From assembly GCA_965203055.1 (NCBI GenBank), contig OZ241863.1, positions 4,416,001-4,480,000 on the forward strand: 64,000 nt of DNA, in the 5' to 3' direction. This document shows, in pieces, positions 13,985-48,550 of this stretch. The notes beneath the pieces are model-generated. The model saw only the letters and a program-made list of their open reading frames with translations. It made no database searches and was not told the DNA's origin. This DNA is from Spirochaetia bacterium (GTDB lineage Bacteria > Spirochaetota > Spirochaetia > SZUA-6 > Bin103). Position numbers and translations under genes: made by a program. Every line of letters begins with the position of its first letter. Position 1 is the stretch's first letter.

Positions 13985-14016
13985 AACGTTATTGATCGGC
14001 CGCTATGCTGAGGGCC

Positions 14017-19966: not shown

Positions 19967-20001
19967 TCAATCGAGGGTTTTATCGAACTGGACTCCGATG
20001 G

Positions 20002-20166
20002 TCAATCGCTATCTATTCTGGAACATGACGATGCTTTCTCGAGACGCCACTCGTCCATATTTGCCCATCTGCTGCGCGCTGTTGCCGCTCCTTTGAGGGG
20101 AGGTCCGGCGGCGGATGGCTCGAACGGGTTGAATTCGAGCCCGAACTTATGAAGCATGTTGGGCAT
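20002..20166 (-). pseudogene. Probable truncated 5' remnant of an ATPase-like gene
   Basis: AGGAGG RBS and ATG overlapping the upstream gene end; MPNMLHKFGLEFNPFEPSAAG resembles the FGL..NPF N-terminus of P-loop ATPases, but the frame stops after 54 codons. Confidence 0.45.
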
Positions 20167-24231: not shown

Positions 24232-24375
24232 GCTACCGCGGGAACGGCGGCTCCATCCATCGGTGCAACTCGTCGTTCGCCTTCTCCCGATTCGCCTGCG
24301 CCGTCACCCGCCGCCTGAGGCATAGACATCGCTGCCATCGCCTTCCATGATACGCTATCATCTGACAAGGCGGCC

Positions 24376-24656
24376 ATGGCGCTGACATTCGAGTGGGATG
24401 ATGCCAAAGCCCGGGCCAACGTGCGCAAGCACGGTGTACGGTTCGAGGAGGCGGCCACCGCATTTGGCGACGTCCTATCCGTCACCGTTGCCGACCCGGA
24501 TCACTCGCTTGATGAGGATCGGTTCATACTATTGGGTATGACCCAGCAGGATCGGCTGTGGTCGTTGCGCACACCGAACGCGGCGCCACTATTCGGCTGA
24601 TCAACGCTCGACTGGCGACAGCCAAGGAACGGAAGGGATATGAGGAAGGAACCTGA
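24376..24656 (+). pseudogene. brnT: BrnT (DUF497) toxin with 1-nt deletion frameshift
   Basis: FEWDDAKARANVRKHGV.FEEA...DPDHS.DEDRF..LG; after CTG-TG at 24556-24560 the conserved tail VVAHTERGATIRLINARLATAKERKGYEEGT* continues in another frame to TGA 24654-24656. Confidence 0.85.
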
Positions 24657-24855
24657 GCTGGAAGGCGGTGACGAATTGCGGGATGAGTACGACTTTTCGC
24701 AGGGAGTGCGCGGCAAGTACGCCGGCCGGTATTCTGACGGTGCAAACGTCGTCATCCTCGATCCGGACATCGCCAAGGTGTTTCGCACCTCGGAGGCCGT
24801 AAACAACGCGCTGCGAGCGCTGGTGGACGCGGCGAACCGGACGGTTGGCTCGTAG
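24640..24855 (+). CDS. brnA: BrnA-like antitoxin
   Basis: DELRDEYDFSQGVRGKY...V.LDPD.AKVF..SEAVN.ALR pattern; overlaps the toxin end. Confidence 0.8.
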   Translation: MRKEPELEGGDELRDEYDFSQGVRGKYAGRYSDGANVVILDPDIAKVFRTSEAVNNALRALVDAANRTVGS

Positions 24856-24894
24856 CGGGTACTGCGACCGTTGCGCTCGGCGCACGGACGTACT

Positions 24895-26130: not shown

Positions 26131-26161
26131 GCCGTGAATGATAATCATTCACGGCATGAAT
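26125..26161. promoter_or_regulatory. Perfect 18-bp-arm inverted repeat over the start of the DUF4143 ATPase gene
   Basis: ATTCATGCCGTGAATGAT-A-ATCATTCACGGCATGAAT; TATAGT -10-like hexamer immediately upstream on the minus strand. Confidence 0.75.
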
Positions 26162-26303
26162 GACTATAGATCGTACGGAGTGCCGTGTACGGCCCGGTCC
26201 GTAGCCGGGTAGACAGCCGGCTGATGAGAATTGTACTGTACTGTTGAAGCGCGACGCACGAGGTGTGATGTGAGCAGAAGGCACGGTAAAGCCGTGTCCA
26301 CTA

Positions 26304-27029
26304 TTGACCATGATTGACGAGAGTAATGCGATTCGTAAAGTGTCGGAGAAGTGGGGTTTTGGAATGGCGCCACCAAAGACGAATATTCATATGGATCGCA
26401 TTGCGGCGTGTAATCTTTGTCTAGAGATACTGTGTTCGAGAACACTCCGGGAATCGGAACCACAAACCTTACAGTCCCTAAGTACGGTAAAGGGTCTGTT
26501 CAATCGTATCGTTCGAGAAGACCAATGGGATTGGTTCACCGTTTCTGCGCAACTAGGATACCCATCGCGTCAATTGTCAAGGGTAATAGCGAACGAAATA
26601 GCATTGCTCCGGAGCGCGATAGCGAATAATAACCATGTCACGTTCAATCGCACATGTGCCCGTTTGTGTCGTATACCGACACGAGTTTGCCTATCGAGAT
26701 TCCTCGGTAAGGCAAGCGTCTACAGGAAGCCCGGAGCCGGATGGATATATGTGCTTTCGACGAGAGAGTTACGCGACTTGCTGAAAATAGGGATGACTAC
26801 TCGGGGAGTGGAGCACCGAGCTCGAGAGATCAATCGGGCAACAGGTGTGGCAATTCCTTTTGGAGTGAGGCGTTGTTGGCTTGTGTCTGATCCCACGAAG
26901 GCTGAAAGAATTATTCATCGACGCCTTCACAGATTCCGTCTTCGGGATGACAGGGAGTTTTTTCGGGTATCGTTCATAGAAGCGGTGCAGATAATAGATG
27001 CGGTGATGCGCGAGGAGTCACTTGAATAG
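26304..27029 (+). CDS. GIY-YIG nuclease family protein (T5orf172/MUG113-like C-terminal domain)
   Basis: GWIYVLS...LLKIGMTTR.VE.RA.EI..ATGV..PF...E..IH..L..FR....REFF; markedly lower GC. Confidence 0.85.
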   Translation: MTMIDESNAIRKVSEKWGFGMAPPKTNIHMDRIAACNLCLEILCSRTLRESEPQTLQSLSTVKGLFNRIVREDQWDWFTVSAQLGYPSRQLSRVIANEIALLRSAIANNNHVTFNRTCARLCRIPTRVCLSRFLGKASVYRKPGAGWIYVLSTRELRDLLKIGMTTRGVEHRAREINRATGVAIPFGVRRCWLVSDPTKAERIIHRRLHRFRLRDDREFFRVSFIEAVQIIDAVMREESLE

Positions 27030-27147
27030 GAACTTTGGACGCTCTGGTTGAGTTGAGCAACGTAGCCGGCCAACAGTATAGCACGAAGCGCGCTCCTAGT
27101 AGTCGGCCTTATGAGTCTCCATCGAGCGCCTGATCGTCCGCGGGCGA

Positions 27148-27693
27148 CTACATGCCCCACACGGTGACCGGTCGGCCGGCGGCGGATTCGGTGCGGCGGA
27201 ACACCTTGTCGTTCCACGACCTGCCGGCGGTGCGGTCGAACAGCACCAAGTGGCCTTCGGCGGCCGCGTAGCGGTCCATGTAGGCGCGCGTCTGCGCCAG
27301 CCCGGTGCGGATGGTTTCGTCCCGACTGCGGCGCACCAGCTTGCACTCGATCACCATCCGGCGCGTGCGTTCCAGAGGCGCGCCGGCCGGCCAGACGATC
27401 AGCAGGTCGGTGCGCATCCGTCCCAGCCCGTACTCGCGCTCCACCCGGCCGCCCGGAGTTGACCACGCGCTGCAGGAACGCCTGCAGCAGCAACTGCGGT
27501 CCCGCCTCCCGATACTGGAACCGCTCGATCCAGTGCTCGGAATGCTCGCGAAAGAAGGTCTGAAACGCAACCAGCAGGTCGGCGAGCCGCAGCTCCCCGC
27601 TTCGTCTACGTACCAGGCGGGGGCGTGCGTAAGGCCGGCCTGCGTGGTCCAGGCAAGGTCGCGCGGGGTCACCTCCCGGTAGATCGGATTGGC
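27148..27693 (-). pseudogene. 5'-truncated fragment of an ATP-binding/PD-(D/E)XK protein with two compensating frameshifts
   Basis: Reconstructed ANPIYREV.PR...WY...LL..FQ.FFREHSE.W.ERFQY.EAGPQLLLQAFLQRVVN.GGRVEREYGLGR.RTDL...IECK...VWGM*; -1 near 27596 and +1 near 27453. Confidence 0.8.
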
Positions 27694-27713
27694 CTCCTTA
27701 CGTCTCTCTTACG

Positions 27714-29261
27714 TCAGCCGGCGGCCACCTCGAAGGCCGTCACGTTGCGCGTCTCGCGGCTGAACTCCACCCCGATCAGGTGGATCGGCTCCCCCCGACC
27801 GCGGTACTTGGCCGCGTAGCCGCGCTCCCGCAACTGCGCCAGCGCTCCCCCCGGCGGCGCCGTCTCCACCACCTTGAACTCGAACAGATACACGTGCCCG
27901 CCGGTCCGCACCGCCATGTCCAGCCGCCCGACCGCGCTCGACTCCTCCACCACGATGTCGTACCCCAGTGCCGCGAAGTAGGAATAGAACACGCTCGCGT
28001 AGTACCCCTCGTAGCGCGCGATGTCGTTGTTGGTGTGCCATTCATACGGGATGCCGGCGAAGAAGGCGTGGAACAACTCCCGCAGGCCGGCGCAGTCGTG
28101 CGCTTCCAGCAGGCGCGCCAGACGGATGCTGTTCGCGGTCTGCCGTCTGGTGTCCTGCACCAGCCGGCGCAGCAGCACCCGGTTCAGGCTCTGCCGCACT
28201 TCCCGGTTCGGATAGCCCAGCCGATACAGCGGCAACCCGCCCAGCTCTTCCTCCCCCGTGATCGTCAGGTAGCCGGTCTGGAACAGCAGCGCCTCGGTGC
28301 CGATGTGCTCCACGTCGAACGCCGACAGCAGGTCGTCGGTGCCGACCATCTCCTGCAGCGAGACCGACGACACCCGCCGCTCGAACAGCGTGTCGACCAG
28401 GAACGCCGGCGTGCCGGTCTCGAACCAGTGGGCGGCGAACTTGCGGCGGCGCAGCAGCAGCAGCACGTCGAAGGGGTTGTAGACCGATTCCTCGCCCAGC
28501 CAGCGATAGCCGTTGTACCAGTCGCGCACCCGTTCCCGGTCCAGTCCGTCGAGCTCCGGGGCGAACACGGTGTCCAGGTCACCCTCGGTATAGCCGCAGA
28601 TCGAGGAGAAGGCTGGGTCCAGCGTGATGTCGGTGAGGTTGTTGAGATCGGAGAACAGGTTGACCTTGGAGAACTTGCTCACCCCGGTCAGGAACGTGAA
28701 CCGCAGGTGCGCGTCGCAGTCCTTGATCACGCCGTACACGCCGCGCAGGTAGTCGCGGTTGGCGCGCGCCACTGGCGGCGTGTCCAGCGCTTCCAGGATC
28801 GGCTTGTCGTACTCGTCCACCAACACCGCGACCCGTTGCCCGCTGCGTTCGTGCAGCGACCTGATCAGATAGCCGAACCGCTCCGGCGCGGTGTCGTAGC
28901 GGGGGCGCACGCCGGCCGCCTGCTCCAGGCCGTCCAACTGCGTGGCCAGGTTGGCGTGCAGCTGGCCCGGCTCCTTGAAGTGGCCGCCGGCAAAGCTCAA
29001 CCGCACCACCGGATGTCGTTCCGACCAGTTCCAGCCGGCGTGGACGTGGAGCCCGGCGAACAGCGGCTCGTTGCCTTCGAACAGTTCCTTCAGCGTGTCC
29101 AGGAACAGGCTCTTGCCGAACCGCCGCGGGCGCGACAGGAAGTAGTGCGTACCTTCGTCGAGCAGCCGTTCGATGAAGGCGGTCTTGTCCACGTAGTAGC
29201 AGTTCTCCTCCCGCAGCTTGCGGAAGGTCTGGATGCCGATCGGCAGGCGGCGCTTGGTCAT
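27714..29261 (-). CDS. AAA-ATPase-like + PD-(D/E)XK (PDDEXK_9) nuclease domain protein
   Basis: RLPIGIQTF, YYVDKT, LSRPRRFGKSL, LVDEYDKP, TGVSKF, WYNGY, YNPF, GRLDM...LFEFK. Confidence 0.93.
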   Translation of the reverse strand: MTKRRLPIGIQTFRKLREENCYYVDKTAFIERLLDEGTHYFLSRPRRFGKSLFLDTLKELFEGNEPLFAGLHVHAGWNWSERHPVVRLSFAGGHFKEPGQLHANLATQLDGLEQAAGVRPRYDTAPERFGYLIRSLHERSGQRVAVLVDEYDKPILEALDTPPVARANRDYLRGVYGVIKDCDAHLRFTFLTGVSKFSKVNLFSDLNNLTDITLDPAFSSICGYTEGDLDTVFAPELDGLDRERVRDWYNGYRWLGEESVYNPFDVLLLLRRRKFAAHWFETGTPAFLVDTLFERRVSSVSLQEMVGTDDLLSAFDVEHIGTEALLFQTGYLTITGEEELGGLPLYRLGYPNREVRQSLNRVLLRRLVQDTRRQTANSIRLARLLEAHDCAGLRELFHAFFAGIPYEWHTNNDIARYEGYYASVFYSYFAALGYDIVVEESSAVGRLDMAVRTGGHVYLFEFKVVETAPPGGALAQLRERGYAAKYRGRGEPIHLIGVEFSRETRNVTAFEVAAG

Positions 29262-29300
29262 CGGCTCAATCGTACCACGTCAGCCGCGCGCGGTGGGGGC

Positions 29301-32300
29301 TCAGCACGGCGGCTCGGCGCGGGCAAGAAGGTCCTTGAAGGAGTAGTTGACGCTGGTGACGCCGAAGTCAGGCTCGCGGCGGAACGGGCGGCGCACGTAG
29401 TGCACCCGGTGGCCGCCGTCGTCCAGGAACTCGACGATCGCCAGGCGGTAGTCTTCCGGCTGATTCAGCGAGTAGAGCACCTCGTTGCGGGTGACCGTGA
29501 TGGCGTCCGCGCCGCGCACCCGGCCCTTGACCTCGATGAAGCGCAGCCGGCCGCTGTCGGGAACGCGGCTCTCCAGGTCGTAGCCGAGGCGTTCCGTTTC
29601 CCGGTCGGTCGGCTCGTAGCCGAGCGCCCGTTCGGCCTCCATGACGATGGCGCGCGCCCGCGCCGCGGACTCCTGCGTGTCACCGGCGGCCCGCGCCGGC
29701 GCGGCGGATGCTCCGCCCATGGCCGCCAGCAGACCGCGCGGCGCCACCAGCACGCCGCCGAGCATCACCGGCGGCAGCGGCGCCAGGCGCGCCTCCAACC
29801 GCAGCTCCCGCAGCCGCCGCCGCAGCCGCGTCTGCAGCGCGTCCGCCCGGCGGCGCGCCTCTCCGGAGTTCAGCTTGGCGCCGGGGCGGCCCGCCAGTTC
29901 CTGCTCCCGAAGCTGGGAGGCGCGGTGGTCCCAATGCGCGATCTCCTTGGTCAGGCGCTCCTTGACCGCGGCCTCGGTCTTGGCGATGAGGCCGAGGCGG
30001 GCCGCGCGCACCTCCTGCAGATGGCCGGGCACCGCGCGCGTAACCGCGTGTTCTTGCGCCTGCCGCTCCAGGCCGCCGCTGATCCACGCGCACTCCGGGC
30101 GTGCCAAGATCGCCGCGGCGCCCGGCTCCCCGTCCGCCAGCGGGCGGTAGTCGAGGTAGGGAGCGTAGTGCAGGTGGCGCGGCGCCGCGCCCGCGCTCAA
30201 CTCGACGTAGAGCAGGCGCTTGGACACCACCCGGCGTTCGCCGGTGCGGGTGCGGCGGGCGTCTTGAATCGCGTGCTCCAGATAGAACAGCACCCGCGGC
30301 GCGGTCCCGGAATCGCGCTCGTCGACCAGCACCGCGCCGCGCTTCAGCAGGTGGCGATGGCGCTCCAGCGTCAGGTCGAGCACCGCGTCGAGCAGCGGGT
30401 GACCGGGACACAGGAACGCGGCCGGCGGCTGCCCCGGCGGAGCCAGCAGGCCCTTCTCGAAGGCGGCGCGTTCATAGCGCGCCAGGACCGGCTCACCGGC
30501 CCCGAGCAGGCGGTCGCGGGCACGAACCGCGCCCGGCACGTGCGTAATCTCGTAGCGCCGCGGCTCGCGTTGGCGCAACGACCCGCCCAGCCGCGCGAAC
30601 GCCGCGCGAAAGAACGACTCGACGTAGTGCGGCTGCAGGCGCCGCGCCGCGGCCCGCTCCAGCTCCTCCCGCACCCGCTGCACGCGCGCAGCGTCCATGG
30701 CGTCCGGGGCCAGCGCCCGTTCCGCCAACAGCTCCTGCAGCCGGGCGCGGTCCAGGGCGGAGTCGAGCGCCGTGGTCAGCCGCGCCCGTACCTCCGGTTG
30801 CTCGCCGTAGCGGACCGCCTCCAACAGCAGGCCGCGCAGCGGGCGCCCGGCGAACTGCAACTTGCCGAGCACGTCGAACACCTGCCCGCCAAGGGCGGCG
30901 CGCGCCTGGTCCAGCTTCTCCAGCAGCCGCCGGTAGACGTCGCCTTCGCGGGTCTCCTCGGCCACCAGGTTCCACAGGTGGCACACCTCGGTCTGGCCGA
31001 TCCGGTGGATGCGCCCGAAGCGCTGCTCCAGGCGGTTCGGGTTCCACGGCAGGTCGTAATTCACCATCAGGTGGGCGCGCTGCAGGTTGATGCCCTCACC
31101 GGCCGCGTCCGTGGCCACCAGGATCGACACGCCGCGATCGTGGCGAAACGCCTCCTGCGCCGCGCGGCGCGCCTCCCGCGCCAGGCCGCCGTGAATCACC
31201 GTCACGGCCTCCTCGCGCCCGAGCAGCGTAGTGATGCGTCCGTGCAGATAGGCCAGCGTGTCGCGGTGCTCGGTGAAGATGACCAGCTTCGGCGGCGCTC
31301 GGCGCGTGGCGCCCGGCCCCAGTTCCGCGAGCAGGCCGGCGAGCTGCCGCCACTTGGCGTCGCGGCCGCTGCGCCGCACCCGTAGCGCGACCTCCTCCAC
31401 GTGTCGCAAGGTGCCGATCTCGGCCCTCAGTTCCGCTACCGAGCGGGCGGCCGTCGCCTGGTCGAGGATCGCCTCCGCGGTCTCCTCGAACTCGTCCGCC
31501 GGCAGGTCTTCCAGGTTCTCCAGGTCTTCCAGCTCGTCAGGTTCGAGCTCGACTCCGGGCGCGGGAGAGAGGCGGAAAGCGTGGCGGGCGGGGTTGCCGC
31601 TGCCGCGGCGCTGCAGCTCCAGTTCGCGCAGGCGGCTCTGCAGGCGCCGGCGGCGCCTGAGCAACGACTGGTAGATCGCCTCCGGCGACGAGGCGAGGCG
31701 GCGCTGCAACAGCGTCAGGGCAAAGCCCACGGCGCCGGCGCGGCGGTTGTTCCGCAACGCCTCGGCGCGGTTGAACTCCTCGCGCACGTAGCTGGTCACC
31801 GCCTGATAGAGATGCGCTTCCAGGCCGGACAGCCGGTAGGGGATGGTATGGGCGGCGCGCTCGGGAAACAGCGGCGTGCCGTCGAACTTGAGCAGCCGTT
31901 CCTTCACCATGCGCCGCATCAGGTCCGAAACGTCGGCGGCCTGCGCGCTGCCGCGGAACCGGCCCTCGAAGCGGTCGCCGTCCAGCAGCGCCATGAAGAG
32001 CTGAAAGTCCTCCTCCTTGCCGTTGTGGGGGGTGGCGGTCAGCAGCAGGAAGTGGCGGGTCAGCCGTCCCAGCGCCTGCCCCAGGCGGTAGCGCTTCGTG
32101 TAGCGCACCTCGCCGCCGCTGAAGGTGGCCGCCATCTTGTGCGCCTCGTCGCAGACGATCAGGTCCCAGCGGCCGTCGGGCGCCTGCAGCTTCTGCTGCA
32201 GCGCGTCGTCGCGCGCCAGCTTGTCGAGCCGCGCGATGGCGAGGTCGGTCTCCAGGAACCAGTTGCCGGTGCGCGCCGCGGCCAGCTTGTCGTTGGTGAG

Positions 32301-32840
32301 GATGTCGAACCCCAGGTGGAAGCGGCGGTACAACTCGTCCTGCCACTGTTCGGCCAGGCTGCCGGGGCACACCACCAGACAGCGCTGCAGGTCGCCGCGC
32401 GCGAGCAGCTCCTTCATCAGCAGGCCGGTCATGATCGTCTTGCCGGCGCCGGGGTCGTCGGCCAGCAGGAAGCGCAGCGGCTGGCGCGGCAGCATCGCCT
32501 CGTACACCGCGGTGATCTGATGCGGCAGCGGCTCCACCAGCGAGGTGTGCACCGCCAGCGTGGGATCGAACAGGTGCGCGAGGCGGATGCGCAACGCCTC
32601 CGACACCAGCCGGAACAGCTCGCCGTCGCCGTCGAAGCTCCACGCACGGCCCTGCGCGGCGCTCGCCAGGCGCGCTTCGTCTTCCCGGTAGAGGAGCTCG
32701 CTGCCCAACTCGCCGTCCGCGCCGCGGTAGGTCAGCTCCAGCGCCTGCGCCCCGAACCAGCGCGCGCTCACCACCGTGACCGGGGCCTCGGCCAGGATGC
32801 CGCGCACGCTGGCGCCGGCCTGCAGGTCCTCCAGCTTCAC
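29301..32840 (-). CDS. SNF2-family helicase with C-terminal DUF3883 (PD-(D/E)XK-like) domain
   Basis: LLADDPGAGKT, DEAH, LTATPHNG, TDAAGEGINLQ, YDLPWNP..LEQRFGRIHRIGQ; C-terminal GYDLES...RFIEVKGR. Confidence 0.93.
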   Translation of the reverse strand: MKLEDLQAGASVRGILAEAPVTVVSARWFGAQALELTYRGADGELGSELLYREDEARLASAAQGRAWSFDGDGELFRLVSEALRIRLAHLFDPTLAVHTSLVEPLPHQITAVYEAMLPRQPLRFLLADDPGAGKTIMTGLLMKELLARGDLQRCLVVCPGSLAEQWQDELYRRFHLGFDILTNDKLAAARTGNWFLETDLAIARLDKLARDDALQQKLQAPDGRWDLIVCDEAHKMAATFSGGEVRYTKRYRLGQALGRLTRHFLLLTATPHNGKEEDFQLFMALLDGDRFEGRFRGSAQAADVSDLMRRMVKERLLKFDGTPLFPERAAHTIPYRLSGLEAHLYQAVTSYVREEFNRAEALRNNRRAGAVGFALTLLQRRLASSPEAIYQSLLRRRRRLQSRLRELELQRRGSGNPARHAFRLSPAPGVELEPDELEDLENLEDLPADEFEETAEAILDQATAARSVAELRAEIGTLRHVEEVALRVRRSGRDAKWRQLAGLLAELGPGATRRAPPKLVIFTEHRDTLAYLHGRITTLLGREEAVTVIHGGLAREARRAAQEAFRHDRGVSILVATDAAGEGINLQRAHLMVNYDLPWNPNRLEQRFGRIHRIGQTEVCHLWNLVAEETREGDVYRRLLEKLDQARAALGGQVFDVLGKLQFAGRPLRGLLLEAVRYGEQPEVRARLTTALDSALDRARLQELLAERALAPDAMDAARVQRVREELERAAARRLQPHYVESFFRAAFARLGGSLRQREPRRYEITHVPGAVRARDRLLGAGEPVLARYERAAFEKGLLAPPGQPPAAFLCPGHPLLDAVLDLTLERHRHLLKRGAVLVDERDSGTAPRVLFYLEHAIQDARRTRTGERRVVSKRLLYVELSAGAAPRHLHYAPYLDYRPLADGEPGAAAILARPECAWISGGLERQAQEHAVTRAVPGHLQEVRAARLGLIAKTEAAVKERLTKEIAHWDHRASQLREQELAGRPGAKLNSGEARRRADALQTRLRRRLRELRLEARLAPLPPVMLGGVLVAPRGLLAAMGGASAAPARAAGDTQESAARARAIVMEAERALGYEPTDRETERLGYDLESRVPDSGRLRFIEVKGRVRGADAITVTRNEVLYSLNQPEDYRLAIVEFLDDGGHRVHYVRRPFRREPDFGVTSVNYSFKDLLARAEPPC

Positions 32841-34967: not shown

Positions 34968-35755
<788 letters not shown>

Positions 35756-35791
35756 CGCCAGCGCCGTAGCCGAGCGCCCGCCGGCTGCGCG

Positions 35792-38700
35792 CTAACCGCA
35801 AGCGCGAAGTTCTTCAAGCCACGGAAGCACCGCGGTGCGGTCGAAAACGTCCCAATGCGTCTGGTTGCCGTAGTCATTCAGGCACTTGCCGCACGAGCTG
35901 GCACAACCGGCTCGACAGTCGAGGACGCGAATCGCCTCGTCAAGCAGCCGCTCGGTGGAGATCCCCTGCTGTTCCGTGGAGCCTAGCCGTCGCACGAAAC
36001 CGGCGCCGCCCGCTACGGTGTCGTAGAGGACCACGACCGGGTGCCCCCGGTCTATCTGAAACGTTGCCGCAAGATCGCGAGAATCGGTTTGCAACAGGCG
36101 CAGCCCGGCCAGCCTAAACGCTTCCGCCAGGGTACGTGCGAATTCAGCCGCCGGCGTCGCCGGCATCGGTTTTCGGAACGTGAAGGCACGTACGTCGGTC
36201 TCGAATACGTGGCCAAGGTCAACCGGATTCCTCAAGGTGACCTGCGGGCAGTTTTCTCCGGTTCTTGGATTCTTGTGGCGCGACTTGATGGGCTTGCCGT
36301 AGCGGGAATCGAGAGGTGCGGACTCGGCGTGCTCGCACGTCGGACAGCGAAGATAACCTCCCCCGCGCATGCCTCGATTGACGACGAAGAGCCTCCCATG
36401 CGGAGCGCCGCCGCCATCCCTTGGGAACGCAGCGGCATAGAACGTGTGCAACAGCGGCACATCGGTCTCATGGTAGGCCCCGGCAGGCGGCCGGGTCAAC
36501 AACCGCGCTTCGTCGGCTGGCCGCTGTCGAACCCGTGTCGATCCGGGATCTCTGCCGGCACGTTCGGCATACGCAGTCAGAAACCCTTTCGGCTCGATGA
36601 ACGATCCCTGATGGTGGCCAGTCCACTGGTGATGGCACTGCGGGCAGGTCGGAGGAAGCAGGTTGCGGTCGTCGGCGAGTGCAACGTGTCTGCAGCTTTC
36701 GCAGACGCGATACCAGCGCTTCGGCATGAACGATTGTGGATAGCGGATGATGCCGGCGCTGGTCCAGATGCGACCGCCTGCGACCACTTCGGCTCCCGGC
36801 GCGTATTCGGAAATAGCCAGCAGCGCAGCGCGGTCGAGTTGCAGTCCGGTATCCGGGGCGCCGTACGGACTGGCTGGTCGGCCTTTGCTCGTCGAAATCT
36901 CGAGGCGGCAGGTGTGCACCGGAAAGCTGTAGGTGGGAATGACCGCTTGCCGGGAGAGCATGTCCACGAGAAACTGCGCCAACAAGTTCTTCTGTTGGCG
37001 CTGCATGGCGGCGGCCACGTTATACTGCCGATCATCGCCCGCCTGCTTCAGGCGATCTTGCAGCGTCTGCCAGCGGTTCGCAATTTCATTCACGAAGTCG
37101 GACCAGCGTCCCGCGGCACACCGATAGAGATCACATCCGCCCAACCCGGTTGACTGGATGGATCGGGGGATGGTCATTACCAACGATTCAGCCTCGGCAT
37201 ACGCAGCTTGCCCAACGTCAGACGTGGACCATGACCCAAAGGCAGATATGTGACTGCGCACCTCGTCCGCACCGAGATCATGGCCAAGGATGTCGTGCAG
37301 GCGCGGCGCTGCCGATCGGTCGGTGCCCGCCAAACACTCCCGGAAAAACCCCGCAAGTACGATCGACATTTGATGCCGACGGAAGAAGTCGGCGTTGTCC
37401 AGGGCAATGTACGGTACTGCAACGCGCCCGGACAAGTACTCGTCGAACGATTGATACTGTTCCTGATCGTAGTTGCCATTGCGGGCTATCGTCAAAGCGA
37501 CCGGAGCCGCCTGGGCGCGCCGTCCGGCGCGTCCCGCGCGTTGCTGATAGTTGCCGATCCCGGGCGGGACGTTACGGCACAAAGTCGCTTCGAGATCACC
37601 CAGATCGACGCCCAGCTCCATCGTGGTGGTGCAGCTCAGCAGGTTGACGTCTCCGTTGCGGAACTCCTCCTCAAGTTCTTCCCGTAATTGAACGCCAATC
37701 GCCGCGGTGTGTTCCCGCGCGATTGCGTTCATCGAACGTCCGGCGTCACGGCCGTCCAGATAGAGGCGCGCATAGTGGTTGTGCTGCTCCAGAGCGTCGC
37801 GTGCGTCGTTCGCGACTTCGTGCAGGGAACCCTCACACTTCCAGGAGGGGCAGATTGAGCGGACTGAGCGAAACGTCCGCGCGCCGCACACGCGGCATTC
37901 GTACAGTGGCCGCCGGCGGCCATCCTCGATGTGGAGCGTAACCAGATCCAGCGCATAGCCTGGACCGTGGCGCACGAGGAGCCTGGTTTTCTTCGCATGG
38001 TCGAAGAATGCCTTGAGTACGGCGAACGTAAGATCTCGGTTCATCCCAAGTCGCTTCAGTACCCACGAGAAGCGATTGTCATGCTGCTCAGCGGGAAGGA
38101 TTGGTCGCGGAAATGATTTTCGTCGCTGCGGTCTGTCGAGACTGACGCAGCGATTTTCTTGATTCTGACGGCCCCAGATCTTGTCGTCAGTCAGATCCAG
38201 GGTCCCGTCTGAATCGTGAATGGCTCGATCACGTCGTATCAGATCCAGTGCGAGAGCGGCGAAGTCAGTTGCCAAGGCGGTGTCCAGCTCCGGAGCGAGC
38301 TTTGCGACGGCTGCCGCAACGGCGGCCAGCGCGCGGCCGGCGTAACTCACGTGGGCAAGGCCAAGGCTCTCCAGGGACACTCGCGCCATCCCGGCAGTGC
38401 AGAACTCCGCTACAGTATGAGCAGCCAGGAGCCCGCGGGCTGAGTCTCGGCTGCGTTTGTCGCCGCGGAACTGCTTGAGCGCCGTCTGACCTTCTGGCCG
38501 CAGGCGTCGCCATACTCGGTCCGCGAGATCCGCGAATCCGGGCGCATCGTCTCCTGCGGAGCCGGATATGGAGCCGGCAATTCCAGCCCGCACCGCAAGG
38601 TCCAGGCTCGTCCGCTCGAAGAAGGGGGCGAAGAACGCCGCGTCCTGGCGATTGTCGGCGAAGGCGAGCACCTTCCGTCCCGCCATCGGGCGAGGGTATT

Positions 38701-40693
38701 CGTCGGGCTCCGGCTCGGGCAGAGCTTCGAGAAGCACCTGAGCGGCGACTGCGGAAACTGCTTCGTCGCCGGGATGCAGTGGTGAAATCGCTTCCGGATG
38801 GCGCGCGGATCGAGAGCCACAGGCAACGCAGGAGCGGAGGTACCAACGCCGTTCTTCCTGGTCTTCCTTCAGATCACAGCGGATGACCGCGACCCGACCT
38901 GCGGCCCCCTGTGCGGTAATCCGTCCGTTGGCGGCATCGACCCATTCGACCGTTCCGGCGTTGGGACTCTCGTCGTCGCTGTCCACCCCGATCTCTACTG
39001 CCTCAGGGCTGGCAAGAGACTTGATGCGAAACACATAACGGTCGGCGCCGGGAGTGGGCTTACCCGTCGCGACGTCCCCGGCCCGTGAACCTTCGAAATA
39101 GGGTTCGCCACAGTTGCGGCACGCGAGGATGTGATAGTACGGGACGTTATTCGGGTCGTCATGCGACCGCTTCAACTGCAGATCGGACCATCCTTCTTGG
39201 GTTGTCGCGTTCAGCCGTAAGCAGCCGCCCTGAGTGCTGCTGCCTGCCAGATGATAGCGTGCCGGGAGAATGGGAAATGTCTCGGCGTCGGGTCGTGCGA
39301 ACACGGCAGTCGCAATCAAGCCGTGCAGTGCCCTGTTCCGCTCTCCGGGGTCAGCCGAAGGGAACACGGCGTGGGCAATTTCAGTAAACTCCTTCAAGCC
39401 GTGCTCGAGATCGGCTGCTACCCGGTGCACCTCCTTCATCCGCGCCAAGTGCCGGGTGAGGGTACGCCCGATCGGCCCCTCCTCGGGCAGGAGGAACGGC
39501 GTTGCGCCTCGCGTACGGCAGACTTCGTTCCAAGCGCGTATCGAAGGAGCCCGAGCCTCTTGTGCTCTCAAGCGGGCGACGATCTCTCCGACCGCAATCC
39601 AGGTCGCGGGATCCACGGACTTGTCCGGTGTCTGTCCGAGCAGCGTGTGTGGCTGCCGCCGCCCGGTGATCAGGTCGTCGGAATCGAATGGTTCGCCGAA
39701 CAGATCGGAAGCAAACCGAGCCAATTCGGTTCTCCGCGTGGGATCGAGCGTGGCGCTGGTACCTATCGCCTGTATCGTTCCCGGCTCCAACCCGAGCCGG
39801 CGCTTGAGCTTGCGGATCAGAAAGGCGACTTCGATTGCCTGTGCGCCGGCGTAGGTGTGAATCTCATCCAGGACTAGAAACCGGAGTCGTGATCCGCTGA
39901 ACAAGGGAGCGTTGCGCGGCAACAGCAGCAGGTGCTCCAGCATTGCGTAGTTGGTGATAAGGATATGTGGCGGCTGTCTCAACATCTCGCTGCGGGAGAG
40001 TCGCCACGATTCCGGGATCGAATCGCCCTCCTCCAGATCGAGAACGCGCATCAGGGCATCGTTGCGGATGAGTCGGTCCTGTTCCTGCTCTCTCGTTGCC
40101 GATGATCTCACCTGACCGGTGAAGCGGCCAAACGTAATCCCCGGATCACCGAGCTGGCGCAGCAGCAGCGGCGCAATACGGAAGTAGAGCTGGTCGTTGG
40201 CAAGCGCATTCAGAGGATATACCAGGATGGCGCGAACTCCAGGCGTGTCAAGGTCACCGTCGCGCAGGAGCCGGTCAATGATCGGGTAGAGAAAGCACTC
40301 GGTCTTCCCGGATCCGGTCCCGGTAGCAACAATTACGTTCCGATGATTGGCGGCTCGACGAAGCGCAGTGTCCTGGTGTCTGTGGAGAGCACGGCAAAAT
40401 ACACTTGGAGCCGTGCTTTCGAGAAGCCGCCAACGGCTGCCACAGACACCCGATTCAACGAATTGAGCGAGTGATCCGCCCTTCTCGAAGTCTGGGAGAC
40501 TCTCGACGAACGGCCCCTTCATCAAGGCGTCATCCTCGGCAATCTTATCCCGCACTGCACGCGCCAACTGGGGAGCTCTGGTCGGAGAAATTGGGACCGC
40601 GGTAGCAAGGTATCGCGCCAGCGTGGAGCGCAGTCGGTCGCGGAGTTGAATCGGATCAATATCGGCCGCTACGGTATCGGACGACTGTGCCAT
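35792..40693 (-). CDS. Large DEAD/DEAH SF2 helicase with Zn fingers and C-terminal DUF1998 (DruE/MrfA-like)
   Basis: GGAGG RBS; ATGTGSGKT, YPLNALA.DQ, TNYAMLE, LDEIH, SAT, TTTMELGVDLG, QRAGRAGRR; several CxxC pairs; YDTVAGGAGF...C...C..SC..CL. Confidence 0.92.
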   Translation of the reverse strand: MAQSSDTVAADIDPIQLRDRLRSTLARYLATAVPISPTRAPQLARAVRDKIAEDDALMKGPFVESLPDFEKGGSLAQFVESGVCGSRWRLLESTAPSVFCRALHRHQDTALRRAANHRNVIVATGTGSGKTECFLYPIIDRLLRDGDLDTPGVRAILVYPLNALANDQLYFRIAPLLLRQLGDPGITFGRFTGQVRSSATREQEQDRLIRNDALMRVLDLEEGDSIPESWRLSRSEMLRQPPHILITNYAMLEHLLLLPRNAPLFSGSRLRFLVLDEIHTYAGAQAIEVAFLIRKLKRRLGLEPGTIQAIGTSATLDPTRRTELARFASDLFGEPFDSDDLITGRRQPHTLLGQTPDKSVDPATWIAVGEIVARLRAQEARAPSIRAWNEVCRTRGATPFLLPEEGPIGRTLTRHLARMKEVHRVAADLEHGLKEFTEIAHAVFPSADPGERNRALHGLIATAVFARPDAETFPILPARYHLAGSSTQGGCLRLNATTQEGWSDLQLKRSHDDPNNVPYYHILACRNCGEPYFEGSRAGDVATGKPTPGADRYVFRIKSLASPEAVEIGVDSDDESPNAGTVEWVDAANGRITAQGAAGRVAVIRCDLKEDQEERRWYLRSCVACGSRSARHPEAISPLHPGDEAVSAVAAQVLLEALPEPEPDEYPRPMAGRKVLAFADNRQDAAFFAPFFERTSLDLAVRAGIAGSISGSAGDDAPGFADLADRVWRRLRPEGQTALKQFRGDKRSRDSARGLLAAHTVAEFCTAGMARVSLESLGLAHVSYAGRALAAVAAAVAKLAPELDTALATDFAALALDLIRRDRAIHDSDGTLDLTDDKIWGRQNQENRCVSLDRPQRRKSFPRPILPAEQHDNRFSWVLKRLGMNRDLTFAVLKAFFDHAKKTRLLVRHGPGYALDLVTLHIEDGRRRPLYECRVCGARTFRSVRSICPSWKCEGSLHEVANDARDALEQHNHYARLYLDGRDAGRSMNAIAREHTAAIGVQLREELEEEFRNGDVNLLSCTTTMELGVDLGDLEATLCRNVPPGIGNYQQRAGRAGRRAQAAPVALTIARNGNYDQEQYQSFDEYLSGRVAVPYIALDNADFFRRHQMSIVLAGFFRECLAGTDRSAAPRLHDILGHDLGADEVRSHISAFGSWSTSDVGQAAYAEAESLVMTIPRSIQSTGLGGCDLYRCAAGRWSDFVNEIANRWQTLQDRLKQAGDDRQYNVAAAMQRQQKNLLAQFLVDMLSRQAVIPTYSFPVHTCRLEISTSKGRPASPYGAPDTGLQLDRAALLAISEYAPGAEVVAGGRIWTSAGIIRYPQSFMPKRWYRVCESCRHVALADDRNLLPPTCPQCHHQWTGHHQGSFIEPKGFLTAYAERAGRDPGSTRVRQRPADEARLLTRPPAGAYHETDVPLLHTFYAAAFPRDGGGAPHGRLFVVNRGMRGGGYLRCPTCEHAESAPLDSRYGKPIKSRHKNPRTGENCPQVTLRNPVDLGHVFETDVRAFTFRKPMPATPAAEFARTLAEAFRLAGLRLLQTDSRDLAATFQIDRGHPVVVLYDTVAGGAGFVRRLGSTEQQGISTERLLDEAIRVLDCRAGCASSCGKCLNDYGNQTHWDVFDRTAVLPWLEELRACG

Positions 40694-43390
40694 GTCTACC
40701 TCCCTGATCAGATAGTTCCTTACCCGGAGGGGCCGCCCGAGTACGCCGCTCTCTCCGCAGAGCCAAGCGCTGAGAATACCGCGATAACAATACTCGTGGT
40801 TATCCGTGAGCCGCCATACCTGCTCAGTACGTCGCTGACTCCTGCCGCCTCCATCACGGCGCGAACCGGATCGCTGGCGACTATCCCGGTACCAGGAGAG
40901 GCGGGCTCCAGCAGCACTGTGGTATCGCTGTATGAGCCCTTCATGGCGTGAGAGATTGTGTTTCCACGGCGGGGCACGGGTATCATCCTGCGTCGTGCGC
41001 GCTCGATACTCTTGCGGACAGCGTCGTTAGTGTCGTCCGACCTTCCGAATCCGTAACCGACGCGTCCCCCGCGATCGCCAACTACGACCAACGTGAATAT
41101 CACATACCGCGGACTGCCACTCGCGGTCTCCGTGGTGCGCCTCCAATCCACCAGCTTCGCAAGCCATCTGTCATCTTCGATGTTGCCCGAGGAAAGGATG
41201 TTGCCGCCGCGAAGCGCTGGGGGCGCCAGCAGTGAGCGTGCCTCGCGTCGTCTTGCAACGACAGGAGTCGCCACCGAACCGGATCTAATCCGCACCAAGT
41301 CAATCGCGTCCTGCGGATGACTTCGTGGACGTAGTCGAATAACGTTGTGCCTTCCGGGTTCGGCCAACGACGCGAAGGGCCTGCGCCATAGTCCAAGCTT
41401 ATCGAAGGGGTTCGGGATGATGTGACCCTTGAAGTCGATATCGGTCGGCTGTTCGGGACAGCGTACGATGATATGCGAAGCAGATTTATCTTGAGGGACG
41501 TCCAGTTCCGTACCAAGCAGCAAGGGATATTCCTTCCCCGTACTAGTGCGGACGAATATGGAGATTCCTGGAGGCGGGAATGTGAACGAGACAACTCTCC
41601 GGTCAACTGAGAAGGCAAGTATAGCGCGCAGATATCGCGCATCCTTTTGCAAGCTAAGCCGTCCGTCAGCCGTCCTTGTCAAGTGCTTAAGATGTGTCTT
41701 TGCAAGGTTTTCCGGAATCGATTCCGCATCGAACACAGCTTGGTCACGCAAGCCTCTGAGACTTGGCCAGTACCAGAATCCGTACCGATTCAGCGCCCGA
41801 TTCTGACTCTTGACGTGTAACGAAATCCTTACCTTACCGAACGGTCCGCGTGTGGGGAGGTTCAGTGGTGCAACAAGGTCTCCGCTGGGCCGTATGTGTA
41901 CGGGAATACGTGATATGAAGTGCATGCCGTATTCCAATTTGATCTCGAGGTTGTCGCTCAGGCCACTCACGTCTCCCCTCAGAACAACGGTACGGGGTTC
42001 TGCCAGAAGCAATCCGTCGGCGTGGCGTGCGACTCTGCAGCCGTCGACTTCCAGGTGAAGGCGGGGATCAACCTGAGCATTTAAGCAGGCGTCTCCTTGA
42101 GAAATGCACAAATCCTTCGAGCTCTCAGGATACAAGACGTACGCGTTCTGGCCAAGTTGATATGCGTCCTCTCCGTTGACCCGAAATAGCCGCATCGACA
42201 CCAGAGAGATCGAACCGGCGGGAATGCGCGGTACGCTGCGTGCTTGATGATTCAGCACTCCTTTGAGCCTGCCGGAGTCGCCATCGAACAGGAGAATGTC
42301 GGCTTGTGGATCTTTGAACAGCGGCAGGGACTGCCAGTTATTTCGCTCAGTGCTAGCCTGCCAGCGAACGCAACGCGGCCAGGGAGGTGACAAGACTGTG
42401 CCCTCTTGTGGATTCAAGGGTCTCGGCGGCTGGCTGGAATTGATGTCGACTTCAAGCGATTGCCCACGAGGCGCGGCTTCAATGCACAGCTCGCCGTCGC
42501 GGAACGTCAAGCAGGGTGGACGAGGCGCCGGACCATGTCCCCCGCTCAGTTCTTTGATTTCGTGGAGGACCCGGCGTTCGAAGTCGGTTGTGGGTTGGTC
42601 CCATTCTCGGAGTCGAACGTAGACGGTAGCGTGATAGCCGGTCGAATCCTCGCCAAGTATTTTGCGCAGCCTTGTCAAGTGTGTCGGAACGTGCTCCATC
42701 GCCTGCTCTTCCCATGACTTGACTTCAGCGGTGTCCTCGCAATCCGGCAGACCGGATTTTCGTTCGACACGCAGGAACGCGTCCACAAGCGGCCTGATCT
42801 GGCTGTGGGGAACACCAGCCTGAAACAGATAGTCGCCAATCAAGTCCTGCGTGCCGGGATACTTCGGCGGGAGTATGAGGCCATGTTCATTGCAGGCGCG
42901 TCGAAATCGATCATTGAAAGAGTCGCGGCGGTTCGTCGAGATCTCCATGCCGAGTCGGTGGGAGATCGGACCATAGCTCGCGTGGTCGGTATCCGGGCCG
43001 TATTGCTCCGCAAGAGTGGTTGCGACGGCCCAGACTGCGAGGAGGGGGTATTGTACGGTCACGTAATCAAGGAAGTTATCTGTTACTCCCCCGATTTCGG
43101 CTACTAGCGCGTGCTCGACGTCGCTGCGCATCGGCTCCGGTATGTCGTGGTGACCGATGAAGGGCGATCCATGTTCCCGTGCCAAGTGCCTTCGCAGTCT
43201 CTGTTCGGCTCCGGCGAGGGCCGCCATCCGCATCTCGTAGCTGGTTGGCATCGGTGGTATTGACTGTCCCGACCATGAGCCACTGGCGTCGTGGCCAAGT
43301 GACATTACCATAGTATTGATCGCTTTCCGGCGCAACCGGCGGTCAGCCGCCGCAGGCGGCAGATGTCCCGGTGTGCGCCGCACTGGTTGT
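35796..43390. other. Lower-GC two-gene insert splitting the suf operon
   Basis: Antisense orientation and weaker GC3 bias than the flanking suf genes; lies between sufC and sufD; no integrase or transposase inside. Confidence 0.75.
40720..43311 (-). CDS. Large helicase-partner protein (DruH-like position) with a C-terminal diverged ribosomal protein uS5 domain; start uncertain (43383, 43311 or 43251)
   Basis: Single open frame immediately upstream of the helicase; last ~140 aa align by eye with uS5 (VVVGD..GRVGYGFG...A.RKS.E.ARR.M...T..H..KG.....V.L.PASPGTGI.A...RAV.EAAGV.DVL...GS). Confidence 0.85.
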   Translation of the reverse strand: MVMSLGHDASGSWSGQSIPPMPTSYEMRMAALAGAEQRLRRHLAREHGSPFIGHHDIPEPMRSDVEHALVAEIGGVTDNFLDYVTVQYPLLAVWAVATTLAEQYGPDTDHASYGPISHRLGMEISTNRRDSFNDRFRRACNEHGLILPPKYPGTQDLIGDYLFQAGVPHSQIRPLVDAFLRVERKSGLPDCEDTAEVKSWEEQAMEHVPTHLTRLRKILGEDSTGYHATVYVRLREWDQPTTDFERRVLHEIKELSGGHGPAPRPPCLTFRDGELCIEAAPRGQSLEVDINSSQPPRPLNPQEGTVLSPPWPRCVRWQASTERNNWQSLPLFKDPQADILLFDGDSGRLKGVLNHQARSVPRIPAGSISLVSMRLFRVNGEDAYQLGQNAYVLYPESSKDLCISQGDACLNAQVDPRLHLEVDGCRVARHADGLLLAEPRTVVLRGDVSGLSDNLEIKLEYGMHFISRIPVHIRPSGDLVAPLNLPTRGPFGKVRISLHVKSQNRALNRYGFWYWPSLRGLRDQAVFDAESIPENLAKTHLKHLTRTADGRLSLQKDARYLRAILAFSVDRRVVSFTFPPPGISIFVRTSTGKEYPLLLGTELDVPQDKSASHIIVRCPEQPTDIDFKGHIIPNPFDKLGLWRRPFASLAEPGRHNVIRLRPRSHPQDAIDLVRIRSGSVATPVVARRREARSLLAPPALRGGNILSSGNIEDDRWLAKLVDWRRTTETASGSPRYVIFTLVVVGDRGGRVGYGFGRSDDTNDAVRKSIERARRRMIPVPRRGNTISHAMKGSYSDTTVLLEPASPGTGIVASDPVRAVMEAAGVSDVLSRYGGSRITTSIVIAVFSALGSAERAAYSGGPSG

Positions 43391-43392
43391 TC

Positions 43393-43449
43393 TTGACCGC
43401 ACGGCGGGCGCGCGCGTATGTTCTAAATAAGACTTGGCAAGTCCTATTT
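43393..43449 (+). promoter_or_regulatory. Second sigma70-type promoter plus Rrf2/IscR-like operator upstream of sufD
   Basis: TTGACC(43393)-18 bp-TATGTT(43417), followed by AAATAAGAC-N7-GTCCTATTT (43425-43449), the same architecture as 32970-32994. Confidence 0.75.
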
Positions 43450-43568
43450 CGTACGGTACACGGTGGGTCAGGCAGAGGCATGGAGATGACAGTCCGCAGC
43501 AGGGGTTTACGCACCGATAAGGCGCGCCGCGTCGCCGCAGGCGGCGCCGGTAACGGAGTGGGGCGCTG

Positions 43569-47413: not shown

Positions 47414-48550
47414 ATGAGTACACCGGCGATATTTGGGCGGCTGGATGAGGCGGGGATAGCCGTACGCTTGGCGAGTTATTCGGCGTTGGACCGGTACTTC
47501 GCCGGACCGGGGCGGAACGGCGCCGCGGGCGTGCTGTACGTCACCGCCGATGCCACGCTGGCCGAGCTGGCGCGGGTGTTCGACGAGTTGCAGTTTGGCG
47601 GTTACCCGCTGGCCGACGCGGTCGCCGTGCATGCGGGGACCCGGCTGTGCGTGCGCTGCAGCGACAGCGCGGAGTCGAACGGCTATCCCTTCACCGTGCT
47701 GGACCTGCAGTTCGACCCGCGGCGCGAGGTGTTCCTCGATCCGCGCGGGGTGTACGGCGACCTGCGCAAGGAGGCATTGGTGGCGCGCGCCAGCGGCTTG
47801 GCGTGGTGGCAGGTGATCGCCGAGGCGGCGCAGGCCGTTTCCCGCTATCACTTTACCGCCGACCTGGAGCGCGCGTTGCTGCCGGGGCCGGCGCCGCCGG
47901 TGCCGGCGGCCTATCAGCGCCACCTGCTGGAGGGGATTCTGACCAGCGCCGCGCCGGCCAAGGGGCTGCGGTTGCTGCATGAGAGCGGCATCGTGGCCAG
48001 TTGGTGGCCGGAGCTGGCGGCGCTGGCGGCGGTCCCGCACACCAAGGACTACCACCCGGAAGGAGACGTCTGGGAGCACACCCTGGCTACCTTCGCCCAC
48101 CGCAAGGAACCCGACCTGGTGCTGTCGCTGGGGCTGCTGCTGCACGACGCCGGCAAACCGCGCGCGGTGCCGCAGGGCGACAAGCGCTTCTTCGCCCACG
48201 CCGAGATCGGCGCCGGGGTGGCCCGGCGCTTCCTGCGCCGGCTGGGGTTCGCGCCCGACCTCGTCGCCGCGGTGGAGTTTCTGGGGCGCAACCACATGCT
48301 GCCGGCCGCCCTCGGCCGGGTGCGCGCGGAGCATGCCGAGGAGCTGATGGAGTCGCCCCTGTTCCCGCGCCTGCTGGAGCTGTACCGCGCCGACATGCTG
48401 GCCACCTTCGCCAGCCCGGAGCCCTACTACCAGGCCTGCCGCCTCTACCAGCGCCACCTGCGCGGGCGCCCGCTCCCGCAGCGCACCGCCGCCGCGTCGC
48501 GCCGGCGCGGCCCCCGTCCCCGCCCGCGCGCCCGCCGCTTCCGGGGATGA
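47414..48550 (+). CDS. HD-domain protein related to CCA-adding enzyme/poly(A) polymerase, with a degenerate head domain
   Basis: FTV, DP.G...DL, PEL..L..V....YHPEGDVWEHT, LLHDAGK, F.AHA..GA, NHM; no clear DxD catalytic motif. Confidence 0.75.
   Translation: MSTPAIFGRLDEAGIAVRLASYSALDRYFAGPGRNGAAGVLYVTADATLAELARVFDELQFGGYPLADAVAVHAGTRLCVRCSDSAESNGYPFTVLDLQFDPRREVFLDPRGVYGDLRKEALVARASGLAWWQVIAEAAQAVSRYHFTADLERALLPGPAPPVPAAYQRHLLEGILTSAAPAKGLRLLHESGIVASWWPELAALAAVPHTKDYHPEGDVWEHTLATFAHRKEPDLVLSLGLLLHDAGKPRAVPQGDKRFFAHAEIGAGVARRFLRRLGFAPDLVAAVEFLGRNHMLPAALGRVRAEHAEELMESPLFPRLLELYRADMLATFASPEPYYQACRLYQRHLRGRPLPQRTAAASRRRGPRPRPRARRFRG

Follow-up and report, generated by a model that had tools for sequence, protein, structure and literature searches.

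What do two adjacent genes encode that interrupt the suf operon of a Spirochaetia bacterium, and what is the large protein that accompanies their helicase? The pair lies in a window of 64,000 nucleotides (assembly GCA_965203055.1, contig OZ241863.1, positions 4,416,001 to 4,480,000 of the forward strand), and an initial annotation had taken it for a divergent Druantia type III module, made up of a DruH-like partner and a DUF1998 helicase. We find that the helicase is a compact form of DruE and that the partner, a member of a protein family outside the coverage of the defense-system database PADLOC, carries at its C terminus a module resembling ribosomal protein uS5, which the initial annotation had overlooked. 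The locus very likely encodes a Druantia III-like system with a uS5-fused partner. On balance we also favor a more specific reading, in which the two genes, acquired horizontally, form an anti-phage module of the Druantia III kind, nearest to the compact III-B form, whose partner has had its C-terminal ~430 amino acids (aa) swapped for uS5.

Both open reading frames (ORFs) are confirmed as co-oriented on the minus strand, the partner upstream of the helicase. On the plus strand, Pfam identifies an Rrf2 regulator, sufB, and sufC (ending at 35755) to the left and sufD (starting at 43569), sufS, and NifU to the right, and the 7.8-kb insert therefore runs antisense inside the operon, between sufC and sufD. 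Its parts are as follows.

35756..35791, no strand: left junction, 36 nucleotides (nt) from the sufC stop to the helicase stop
35792..40693, minus strand: druE-like helicase gene, 1633 aa, compact and without a C-terminal nuclease extension (ORF, PADLOC, Pfam, and length of relatives)
40694..40719, minus strand: intergenic spacer of 26 nt with a GGGAGG ribosome-binding site (direct sequence reading)
40720..43311, minus strand: partner gene, start uncertain (ATG 43311, ATG 43251, or GTG 43383)
43384..43568, no strand: right junction, from the start of the longest partner ORF to the sufD start; AT-richer

The partner ends with TAA at 40720-40722, and GGGAGG lies ahead of the helicase ATG at 40693. 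Depending on the start codon, the partner has 887 aa (GTG 43383, the longest ORF), 863 aa (ATG 43311), or 843 aa (ATG 43251); its start remains uncertain within 43251-43383 because the N termini of homologues (MPT/MST...YEMR) match the ATG at 43251 better than the earlier starts. The partner has a G+C content of 0.58 and the helicase one of 0.62, versus 0.72 for sufD and sufS (68% for the whole window), and at third codon positions it is 0.63-0.69 in the pair versus 0.88-0.95 in sufD and sufS. The initial annotation thus described the arrangement correctly, as a co-oriented pair 26 bp apart with a GGAGG ribosome-binding site, lower in G+C than its flanks and antisense to suf within the operon. 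Under the interpretation that we favor, the module is horizontally acquired.

No other feature of the locus is as unusual as the fusion of the partner to uS5. The partner is built from four segments.

42544..43251, minus strand: N-terminal all-alpha domain, residues 1-236 from ATG 43251, holding the motifs YLFQAGVP and DxTGYHA (AlphaFold2)
41284..42513, minus strand: all-beta array, residues 247-656, of immunoglobulin (Ig)/fibronectin type III (FnIII)-like sandwiches, with a FWYWP module at ~400-560 (AlphaFold2)
41170..41283, minus strand: variable, probably disordered linker, residues 657-694 (predicted local distance difference test [pLDDT] below 50; low family conservation)
40753..41169, minus strand: uS5-like module, residues ~695-833, comprising the Ribosomal_S5 N-domain and S5_C (Pfam 7.3e-14 and 1.3e-16)

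The two Pfam domains score 52.0 bits (Ribosomal_S5) and 60.3 bits (Ribosomal_S5_C) versus gathering scores of 27.1 and 21.5, and the NCBIfam model rpsE_bact is matched at 5.8e-36 over positions 3-140 of 156, with 123.7 bits, below its equivalog cut-off of 164.05. Alignment to uS5 chains in the PDB is gapless over 134 aa (best match 8fmw_E, 5.4e-31), and identity to bacterial uS5, counted in the printed alignment, is ~42%. The module makes up the C-terminal seventh of an 843- to 887-aa protein and is not a stand-alone rpsE product of ~160-220 aa. Both S5 domains recur in all 10 homologous 90% clusters recovered by a word-based search (55-93% identity); all 10 modules are strongly basic, with a net charge of +6 to +14 and a pI of 9.9-11.6, and the N-terminal part of these proteins is near neutral. 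A local hidden Markov model (HMM) of the module detects it in only 4 of the 150 listed representatives of the partner family, which therefore points to a recent replacement in a small clade. Across five more distant S5-type members, the N-terminal part shows 62-76% identity versus 38-50% for the module.

Partners of other short DruE proteins end differently. P0179, which shares its contig size with another short DruE, ends in an Arg-rich tail, and P0180 ends in a duplicated FWYWP module of ~160 aa (its residues 819-978 match 405-561 of P0181). The C-terminal head of these partners appears exchangeable. A complex prediction for DruE residues 330-1090 with the uS5 module (partner 690-863), both with alignments, scored 0.01 (mark 0.32), a result that weighs neither for nor against contact between the two. 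The literature searched held no report linking uS5 or ribosomal protein S5 to anti-phage defense and nothing to match the partner-uS5 fusion, the one apparent uS5 match being a superscript artifact; the string "ribosom" occurs 0 times in the main texts of Bell et al., the forked-DNA preprint, and Himpich et al., although supplementary material may bear on this point.

The helicase matches the PADLOC models DruE1 (6e-167) and DruE3 (1.6e-163), with DruE2 and DruE4 at 1e-102 or better, so that the PADLOC check proposed in the initial annotation came out in favor of DruE. Pfam recognizes DEAD, Helicase_C, and MZB (PF09369, 2.7e-08), arranged as follows.

39734..40390, minus strand: RecA1/DEAD domain, residues ~102-320, with Walker A GSGKT and DEIH (Pfam DEAD and ResIII)
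37517..37699, minus strand: C-terminal part of RecA2 (Helicase_C, residues 999-1059), with motif VI (Pfam, invariant columns)
35879..36103, minus strand: MZB/DUF1998 zinc-binding domain, residues 1531-1605 (PF09369; Cys residues invariant)

Among 26 aligned DruE relatives, GSGKT (127-131), DEIH (276-279), and QxxGRxGR (1050-1058) are invariant, as are Cys 525/528, 622/625, 933/936/948/953, 1331/1334/1350/1353, and 1450/1453/1482 and the four-Cys set of MZB (1593/1597/1601/1604); the complete SF2 motifs, CxxC pairs, and four-Cys DUF1998 end read in the initial annotation are therefore all conserved. The helicase also matches two solved helicases of 2108 aa and 1970 aa, 9tu7_Y (5.6e-65) and 9wae_A. 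As the initial annotation noted, there is no nuclease tail: the protein ends 28 residues past the MZB match, the DruE3 profile is covered only to position 1674 of 2055, and the two C-terminal PLD-like nuclease domains characteristic of Druantia III-A are absent from the helicase.

That annotation also raised the possibility that the gene had been clipped at the edge of the insert. In a search for DruE relatives (8000 candidates scored, 5405 at E<=1e-50), the nearest seven cluster representatives measure 1619-1646 aa at 65-81% identity, and a second tier, at 55-58% identity, measures about 1970-1990 aa; BLAST aligns the ~1980-aa forms collinearly as far as about residue 1640, after which they have ~340 extra residues. 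Because its closest relatives are equally long and the long forms are collinear and then extended, the helicase is not clipped. Its sequence assigns it solidly to DruE of the SF2/YprA (MrfA) family, with MZB zinc modules and no PLD nuclease tail. A neighbor-joining tree (Biopython, 1591 columns), built from close DruE relatives only and without support values, has short forms arising in several places, and the three DruE proteins that share contigs with S5-type partners form one clade nested among the short forms. Bell et al. (2025, PMC12458937) describe a "Type III-like" branch most often without a nuclease domain, and there and in Himpich et al. (2026, bioRxiv 10.64898/2026.05.13.724758) a compact DruE lacking PLD domains corresponds to the III-B state.

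Upstream of the uS5 module, the partner is modeled with confidence. AlphaFold2, using a 45-row alignment, gives the whole protein a mean pLDDT of 82.8 and a predicted template-modeling score (pTM) of 0.76, with 12 helices in residues 1-236 and strands in residues 247-656, both above pLDDT 90. Modeled alone, the N-domain reaches pLDDT 95.3 and pTM 0.91 and has no fold match in the PDB at E<=0.001 (best E 0.21). Foldseek relates the beta array to the S-layer protein SbsC and the leptin-receptor ectodomain, both multi-Ig/FnIII proteins; when the full model is used, uS5 chains dominate the matches. An exhaustive HMMER search with partner residues 1-671 recovered 265 representatives at E<=1e-3, including 163 at <=1e-10 and 69 at <=1e-30. 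A length of 1000-1199 aa is shared by 88 of the 150 listed, and the top matches are collinear over query residues ~10-660; relatives of ~1090 aa carry ~430 more residues where the present partner has the linker and uS5. In the alignment of 45 family sequences only three columns are invariant, and the Gly of YLFQAGVP (G146) occupies one of them. Two cryo-electron microscopy preprints of May 2026 describe DruH as an N-terminal helical domain followed by Ig-like domains, and the predicted architecture of the partner, helical and then tandem Ig-like, fits that plan. Judged from sequence, the partner nonetheless belongs to a family distinct from E. coli-type DruH.

Members of the partner family recur with DruE elsewhere. 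A Ralstonia solanacearum megaplasmid has a family member of 1142 aa (E 1e-13 to the partner) whose gene shares 4 nt with the start of the gene for a 1968-aa DruE (DruE1 2.4e-175; DruE3 profile matched out to 1991 of 2055). For metagenomic homologues, co-occurrence was judged by exactly equal contig sizes, a measure that is no proof of a shared contig and is silent on adjacency. By this measure, partner clusters are tied to DruE clusters on 13 contigs.

Contig size 4,557,819: S5-type partners with the DruE cluster of the window
Contig size 514,669: S5-type partners with DruE P0013
Contig size 19,902: S5-type partners with DruE P0014
Contig size 12,928: partner P0179 (681 aa) with DruE P0017
Five contigs: partner P0180 cluster (982 aa) with the DruE P0019 cluster
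Remaining contigs: partners P0183, P0184, P0191, and P0192 (1088-1107 aa) with DruE P0029, P0023, P0059, and P0070 (~1980 aa)

At least one DruE match was found for 3 of 10 S5-type and 6 of 10 non-S5 partner clusters looked up. A rule that long partners accompany long DruE and short partners short DruE held in the 13 contig matches and was rejected, being broken by a Mycobacterium smegmatis pair of 1132 aa and 1667 aa. The locus also has defense genes as neighbors: within 25 kb upstream, PADLOC places HmaA, HmaB, HmaC, PtuA, PDC-S01, and PDC-S57, and there is an M78 peptidase resembling CapP/RmrA. The pair therefore adjoins a defense island of Hma, Septu, and PDC genes, the kind of setting that the initial annotation had expected for homologues of the pair.

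We infer defense activity and contact between partner and DruE. In the mechanism that we propose, drawn from work of 2026 on III-A and on the Mycobacterium smegmatis pair, DruE would load at junctions of single-stranded DNA (ssDNA) and double-stranded DNA and unwind phage DNA 3' to 5', and the partner, working with DruE, would recognize or process phage replication intermediates. Because this DruE has no nuclease, the effector or toxic role would probably fall to the partner, with DruE regulating it, as in the PLD-less system of M. smegmatis (MSMEG_1253/1254). There, according to Li and He (2026, PMC13316683), a 1667-aa DruE and a 1132-aa DruH are protective, DruH alone is toxic unless DruE is present, and the interface residues of DruH, R410 and E651, lie mid-protein; if the two partners are homologous, the present one would retain that interface region. 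The exchange at the C terminus may have come about when a diverged copy of the ribosomal protein replaced the usual ~430 aa of the partner in a small clade. The basic uS5 module would then take the place of the C-terminal region as a nucleic-acid-binding head that can be exchanged. We favor this role because the positive charge is conserved and a sister lineage carries an Arg-rich tail, but we advance nucleic-acid binding only tentatively, as a possibility somewhat short of even.

Several observations set out here and in the next paragraph weigh against the reading of a Druantia III-like pair with an exchanged nucleic-acid-binding head, and the alternatives are best judged beside them. The AlphaFold2 model of the uS5 part is of low confidence (pLDDT mostly below 50), and nucleic-acid binding is read from the charge of the module alone. 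The basic hairpin KVVKGGRRF of PDB uS5 chains is ETASGSPRY in the partner, so that at least one canonical rRNA-contact loop is altered. The same change bears on the idea that the module is an integrated decoy, mimicking host uS5 so that a phage factor attacking uS5 would trigger the DruH-like/DruE pair. The recent capture of a whole ribosomal protein, with both subdomains in gapless alignment at ~42% identity, would suit a decoy, and the faster divergence of the module would fit an arms race; a C-terminal position that varies within the short-DruE clade is likewise expected of a sensor head. Faster divergence is, however, equally expected from relaxed ribosomal constraint, a good mimic should keep the uS5 surface although the conserved hairpin has changed, and the published DruH work consulted describes nucleic-acid cues with no mention of ribosomes. 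The literature searched gave no phage factor that targets uS5, and we know of none. We therefore regard a decoy as unlikely; if real, it would parallel in bacteria the integrated decoys known from plant nucleotide-binding leucine-rich repeat (NLR) receptors and would tie translation surveillance to Druantia. Another possibility is that uS5 tethers the partner to the ribosome, docking it on 16S rRNA or 30S assembly intermediates so that translation or RNA is watched or acted on. Although both subdomains are present and strongly basic in all 10 homologues, the match stays under the NCBI rpsE cut-off, the hairpin loop is not only altered but varies among family members, we would expect the uS5 site to have little room for a C-terminal fusion on a ~700-aa body, and the solved DruE relatives are described as DNA helicases. 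Such a tether seems distinctly improbable to us.

The remaining alternatives concern the pair as a whole. Were it a canonical druH-druE system of Druantia type III, merely divergent and perhaps with a truncated helicase, the DruE HMM matches and the two-gene order would be accounted for, as would three short motifs that occur in the same order in the partner family and in DruH III-A: LRxxL...SPFIxH and LxRRGLxxPDxRPLYEYH, YLxQAGV and FSEGGLPF, and DxTGYHA and DDxTGT. Such a shared order is not statistical evidence of homology. The GGLP motif that the initial annotation likened to YLFQAGVP is real in DruH III-A (FxEGGLPF is invariant in 25 sequences), but hhalign, comparing 45 family members with those 25, finds no significant homology (probability 0.2), the alignment restricted to the N-domain is in register with E 0.09, and a sequence-versus-profile comparison of the partner with DruH III-A is also nonsignificant. 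The partner matches 0 PADLOC models and no NCBIfam model except those of rpsE; 20 partner relatives and the Ralstonia neighbor likewise have 0 PADLOC DruH matches, although the positive control, full-length E. coli YjiT, matches 12 DruH3 models with E down to 0. YjiT_N (PF27201) and YjiT_2nd (PF27205) occur in 0 of 10 partner homologues, and an Atlas feature search placed YjiT_N/YjiT_2nd clusters at 0.83, below its threshold of 0.9, which makes them a lead only. By sequence, profile, or fold, no DruH chain was found in the PDB (releases to 2026-04-08). In III-A DruH, according to the May 2026 preprints, the C-terminal domain binds the DruE stalk and, with Ig5, ssDNA; in the present partner, the linker and uS5 follow residue 656 in place of that alpha-helical domain, and the helicase is full length for its clade. 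Membership of the partner in the III-A DruH family, as the initial annotation proposed, is thus already contradicted, and we give the canonical alternative little credence. What stands of the proposed Druantia III likeness is the DruE identity of the helicase, the DruH-DruE order, the low G+C content, and the defense island, not a DruH partner as defined by sequence; "DruH-class" is a label owed only to position, size, and predicted architecture. The pair resembles two-gene III-B (DruE representative GIH50614.1) in its compact, PLD-less DruE and single partner. Linkage is incomplete as well: 7 of 10 S5-type and 4 of 10 non-S5 partner clusters had no DruE match, counted by size and not adjacency, and DruE clusters P0015, P0016, P0018, and P0020 had no identified partner. 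Misses are expected because the DruE lists compared, 120 representatives (longest contig only) and the members of six clusters, are incomplete. Finally, the fusion might be an inactive relic, a chimeric accident of recombination with rpsE that left a dead and decaying gene. The family does leave relics, such as 177-180-aa pieces in six Spirochaetia metagenome-assembled genomes (MAGs) and fragments in Sinorhizobium disrupted by insertion sequences (IS), but here neither ORF is broken and no helicase motif is missing. Ten clusters from different contigs, at 55-93% identity, retain the fusion and its basic charge, and three S5-type partners lie on contigs equal in size to those of full-length DruE. 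We consider a relic very improbable indeed. A Druantia III-like module with an exchanged C-terminal head remains the reading that we prefer.

A search of plasmids with the partner gave only Sinorhizobium fragments, disrupted by IS. One on S. medicae plasmid pMl2 (locus L007, 8596-10035) shares a weak 25% identity over 184 aa, lies among IS21/IS66 elements adjoining SIR2 and TIR genes, and looks like a degraded copy. A genome scan for partner relatives gave only the six Spirochaetia MAG loci, each with one fragment among housekeeping genes, and no full-length locus. In these high-GC loci (L001, 9977-10510; L002-L006), the ORF corresponds to the FWYWP module of the partner (48% identity, E 2e-38) and is closest to the C-terminal copy in P0180; it stands between GDSL lipase and aldo-keto reductase genes, in locally lower G+C and without a DruE in the vicinity. 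The ORF is either what is left of a partner gene of the P0180 type or a domain domesticated to stand alone. In E. coli K-12 MG1655 (L009, 12415-16856), a 505-aa yjiT and the pseudogene yjiV, next to mcrBC, have the appearance of a Druantia III-A druH-druE pair that was truncated. In other E. coli strains, YjiT has 1096 aa and the DEAD/DEAH helicase comes after it, and yjiT DNA is present in 630 of 5426 complete genomes.

The neighboring island comprises a complete Hma system, spanning 14878-32840 of the window, with other defense candidates interleaved, and an upstream Septu ATPase gene.

11027-12487: PtuA (Septu) ATPase (PADLOC 7e-165)
14878-18177, minus strand: HmaC (PADLOC E=0)
18551-19966: M78 peptidase resembling CapP/RmrA, between Hma genes
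21328-24231, minus strand: HmaB (PADLOC E=0)
24895-26148: PDC-S01, between Hma genes (PADLOC)
26304-27029: PDC-S57/T5orf172, between Hma genes
27714-29261: AAA-ATPase_like and PDDEXK_9 protein, between Hma genes
29301-32840, minus strand: HmaA (PADLOC E=0)

PtuA is followed by a PhyH-dioxygenase and HEAT-repeat protein (12545-13984) and then by a PhyH protein (14005-14871), with no obvious PtuB. The HmaC homologue has an N-terminal Swt1-like HEPN domain at residues 9-119 (Pfam 9.1e-34), and the PADLOC HmaC profile match begins only at residue 162; the domain may be an added RNase module.

At the ends of the insert, we found no flanking direct or inverted repeats and no tRNA. Promoter matches in the region are not above chance (3 versus 2.2 expected), and terminator matches likewise. 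A sigma-70-like TTGACC-18-TATGTT at 43393-43422 on the plus strand, a pattern match only, could serve sufD. The antisense insert separates sufDS from the sufBC promoter, which raises the question of how sufDS expression is kept up across 7.8 kb between sufC and sufD. Directly after the suf/NifU genes, at 47414-48550, lies a gene for an HD-domain protein with no PADLOC match.

Preprints of 2026 gave the first account of the mechanism of Druantia III, which is among the commonest bacterial defense systems. That Druantia III frame is already known; what is new here is a partner family outside PADLOC coverage and, in one clade, a captured uS5 as C-terminal module. Since PADLOC 2.0.0 misses a partner family of 265 representatives, such systems are probably under-called. 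In nuclease-less relatives, the C-terminal region of the partner appears exchangeable among a ribosomal protein, an Arg-rich tail, and a duplicated internal module, a natural experiment on whether the head of the partner serves nucleic-acid choice, docking, or sensing. The locus also offers a case, without parallel in the literature searched, of an immune gene that has captured a bona fide ribosomal protein.

The known systems place the pair as follows. In the literature searched, the only S5-related label in defense is that of BrxL (BREX), whose Lon_C shares a "ribosomal protein S5 domain 2-type fold"; that is a likeness of fold superfamily only, not homology to uS5 with both subdomains. Bacterial uS5 (rpsE) itself has the same two Pfam domains in the gapless alignment described above, but the module differs in its fusion to a ~700-aa body, a score below the equivalog cut-off, an altered hairpin, and fast divergence within the family. 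Druantia III-A (E. coli and P. aeruginosa; YjiT, STY4851/ECs_5259) shares the plan of a helical domain with an Ig array in the partner and the DruE core; it differs in lacking detectable partner sequence homology, in a DruH C-terminal helical domain that the present partner does not have, and in a DruE carrying two PLD domains where the present one carries none. Druantia III-B comes closer, with two genes, the partner upstream, and a DruE with RecA1/RecA2, zinc modules, and MZB and no nuclease tail, although its published partners are said, in the accessible text, to lack annotated domains, whereas the present partner ends in uS5. The M. smegmatis pair, likened here by description and not by sequence comparison, has a 1132-aa partner for which the accessible text mentions no ribosomal domain; with its single upstream partner and a DruE bearing only DEAD, Helicase_C, and DUF1998, it is the nearest tested nuclease-less DruE system.

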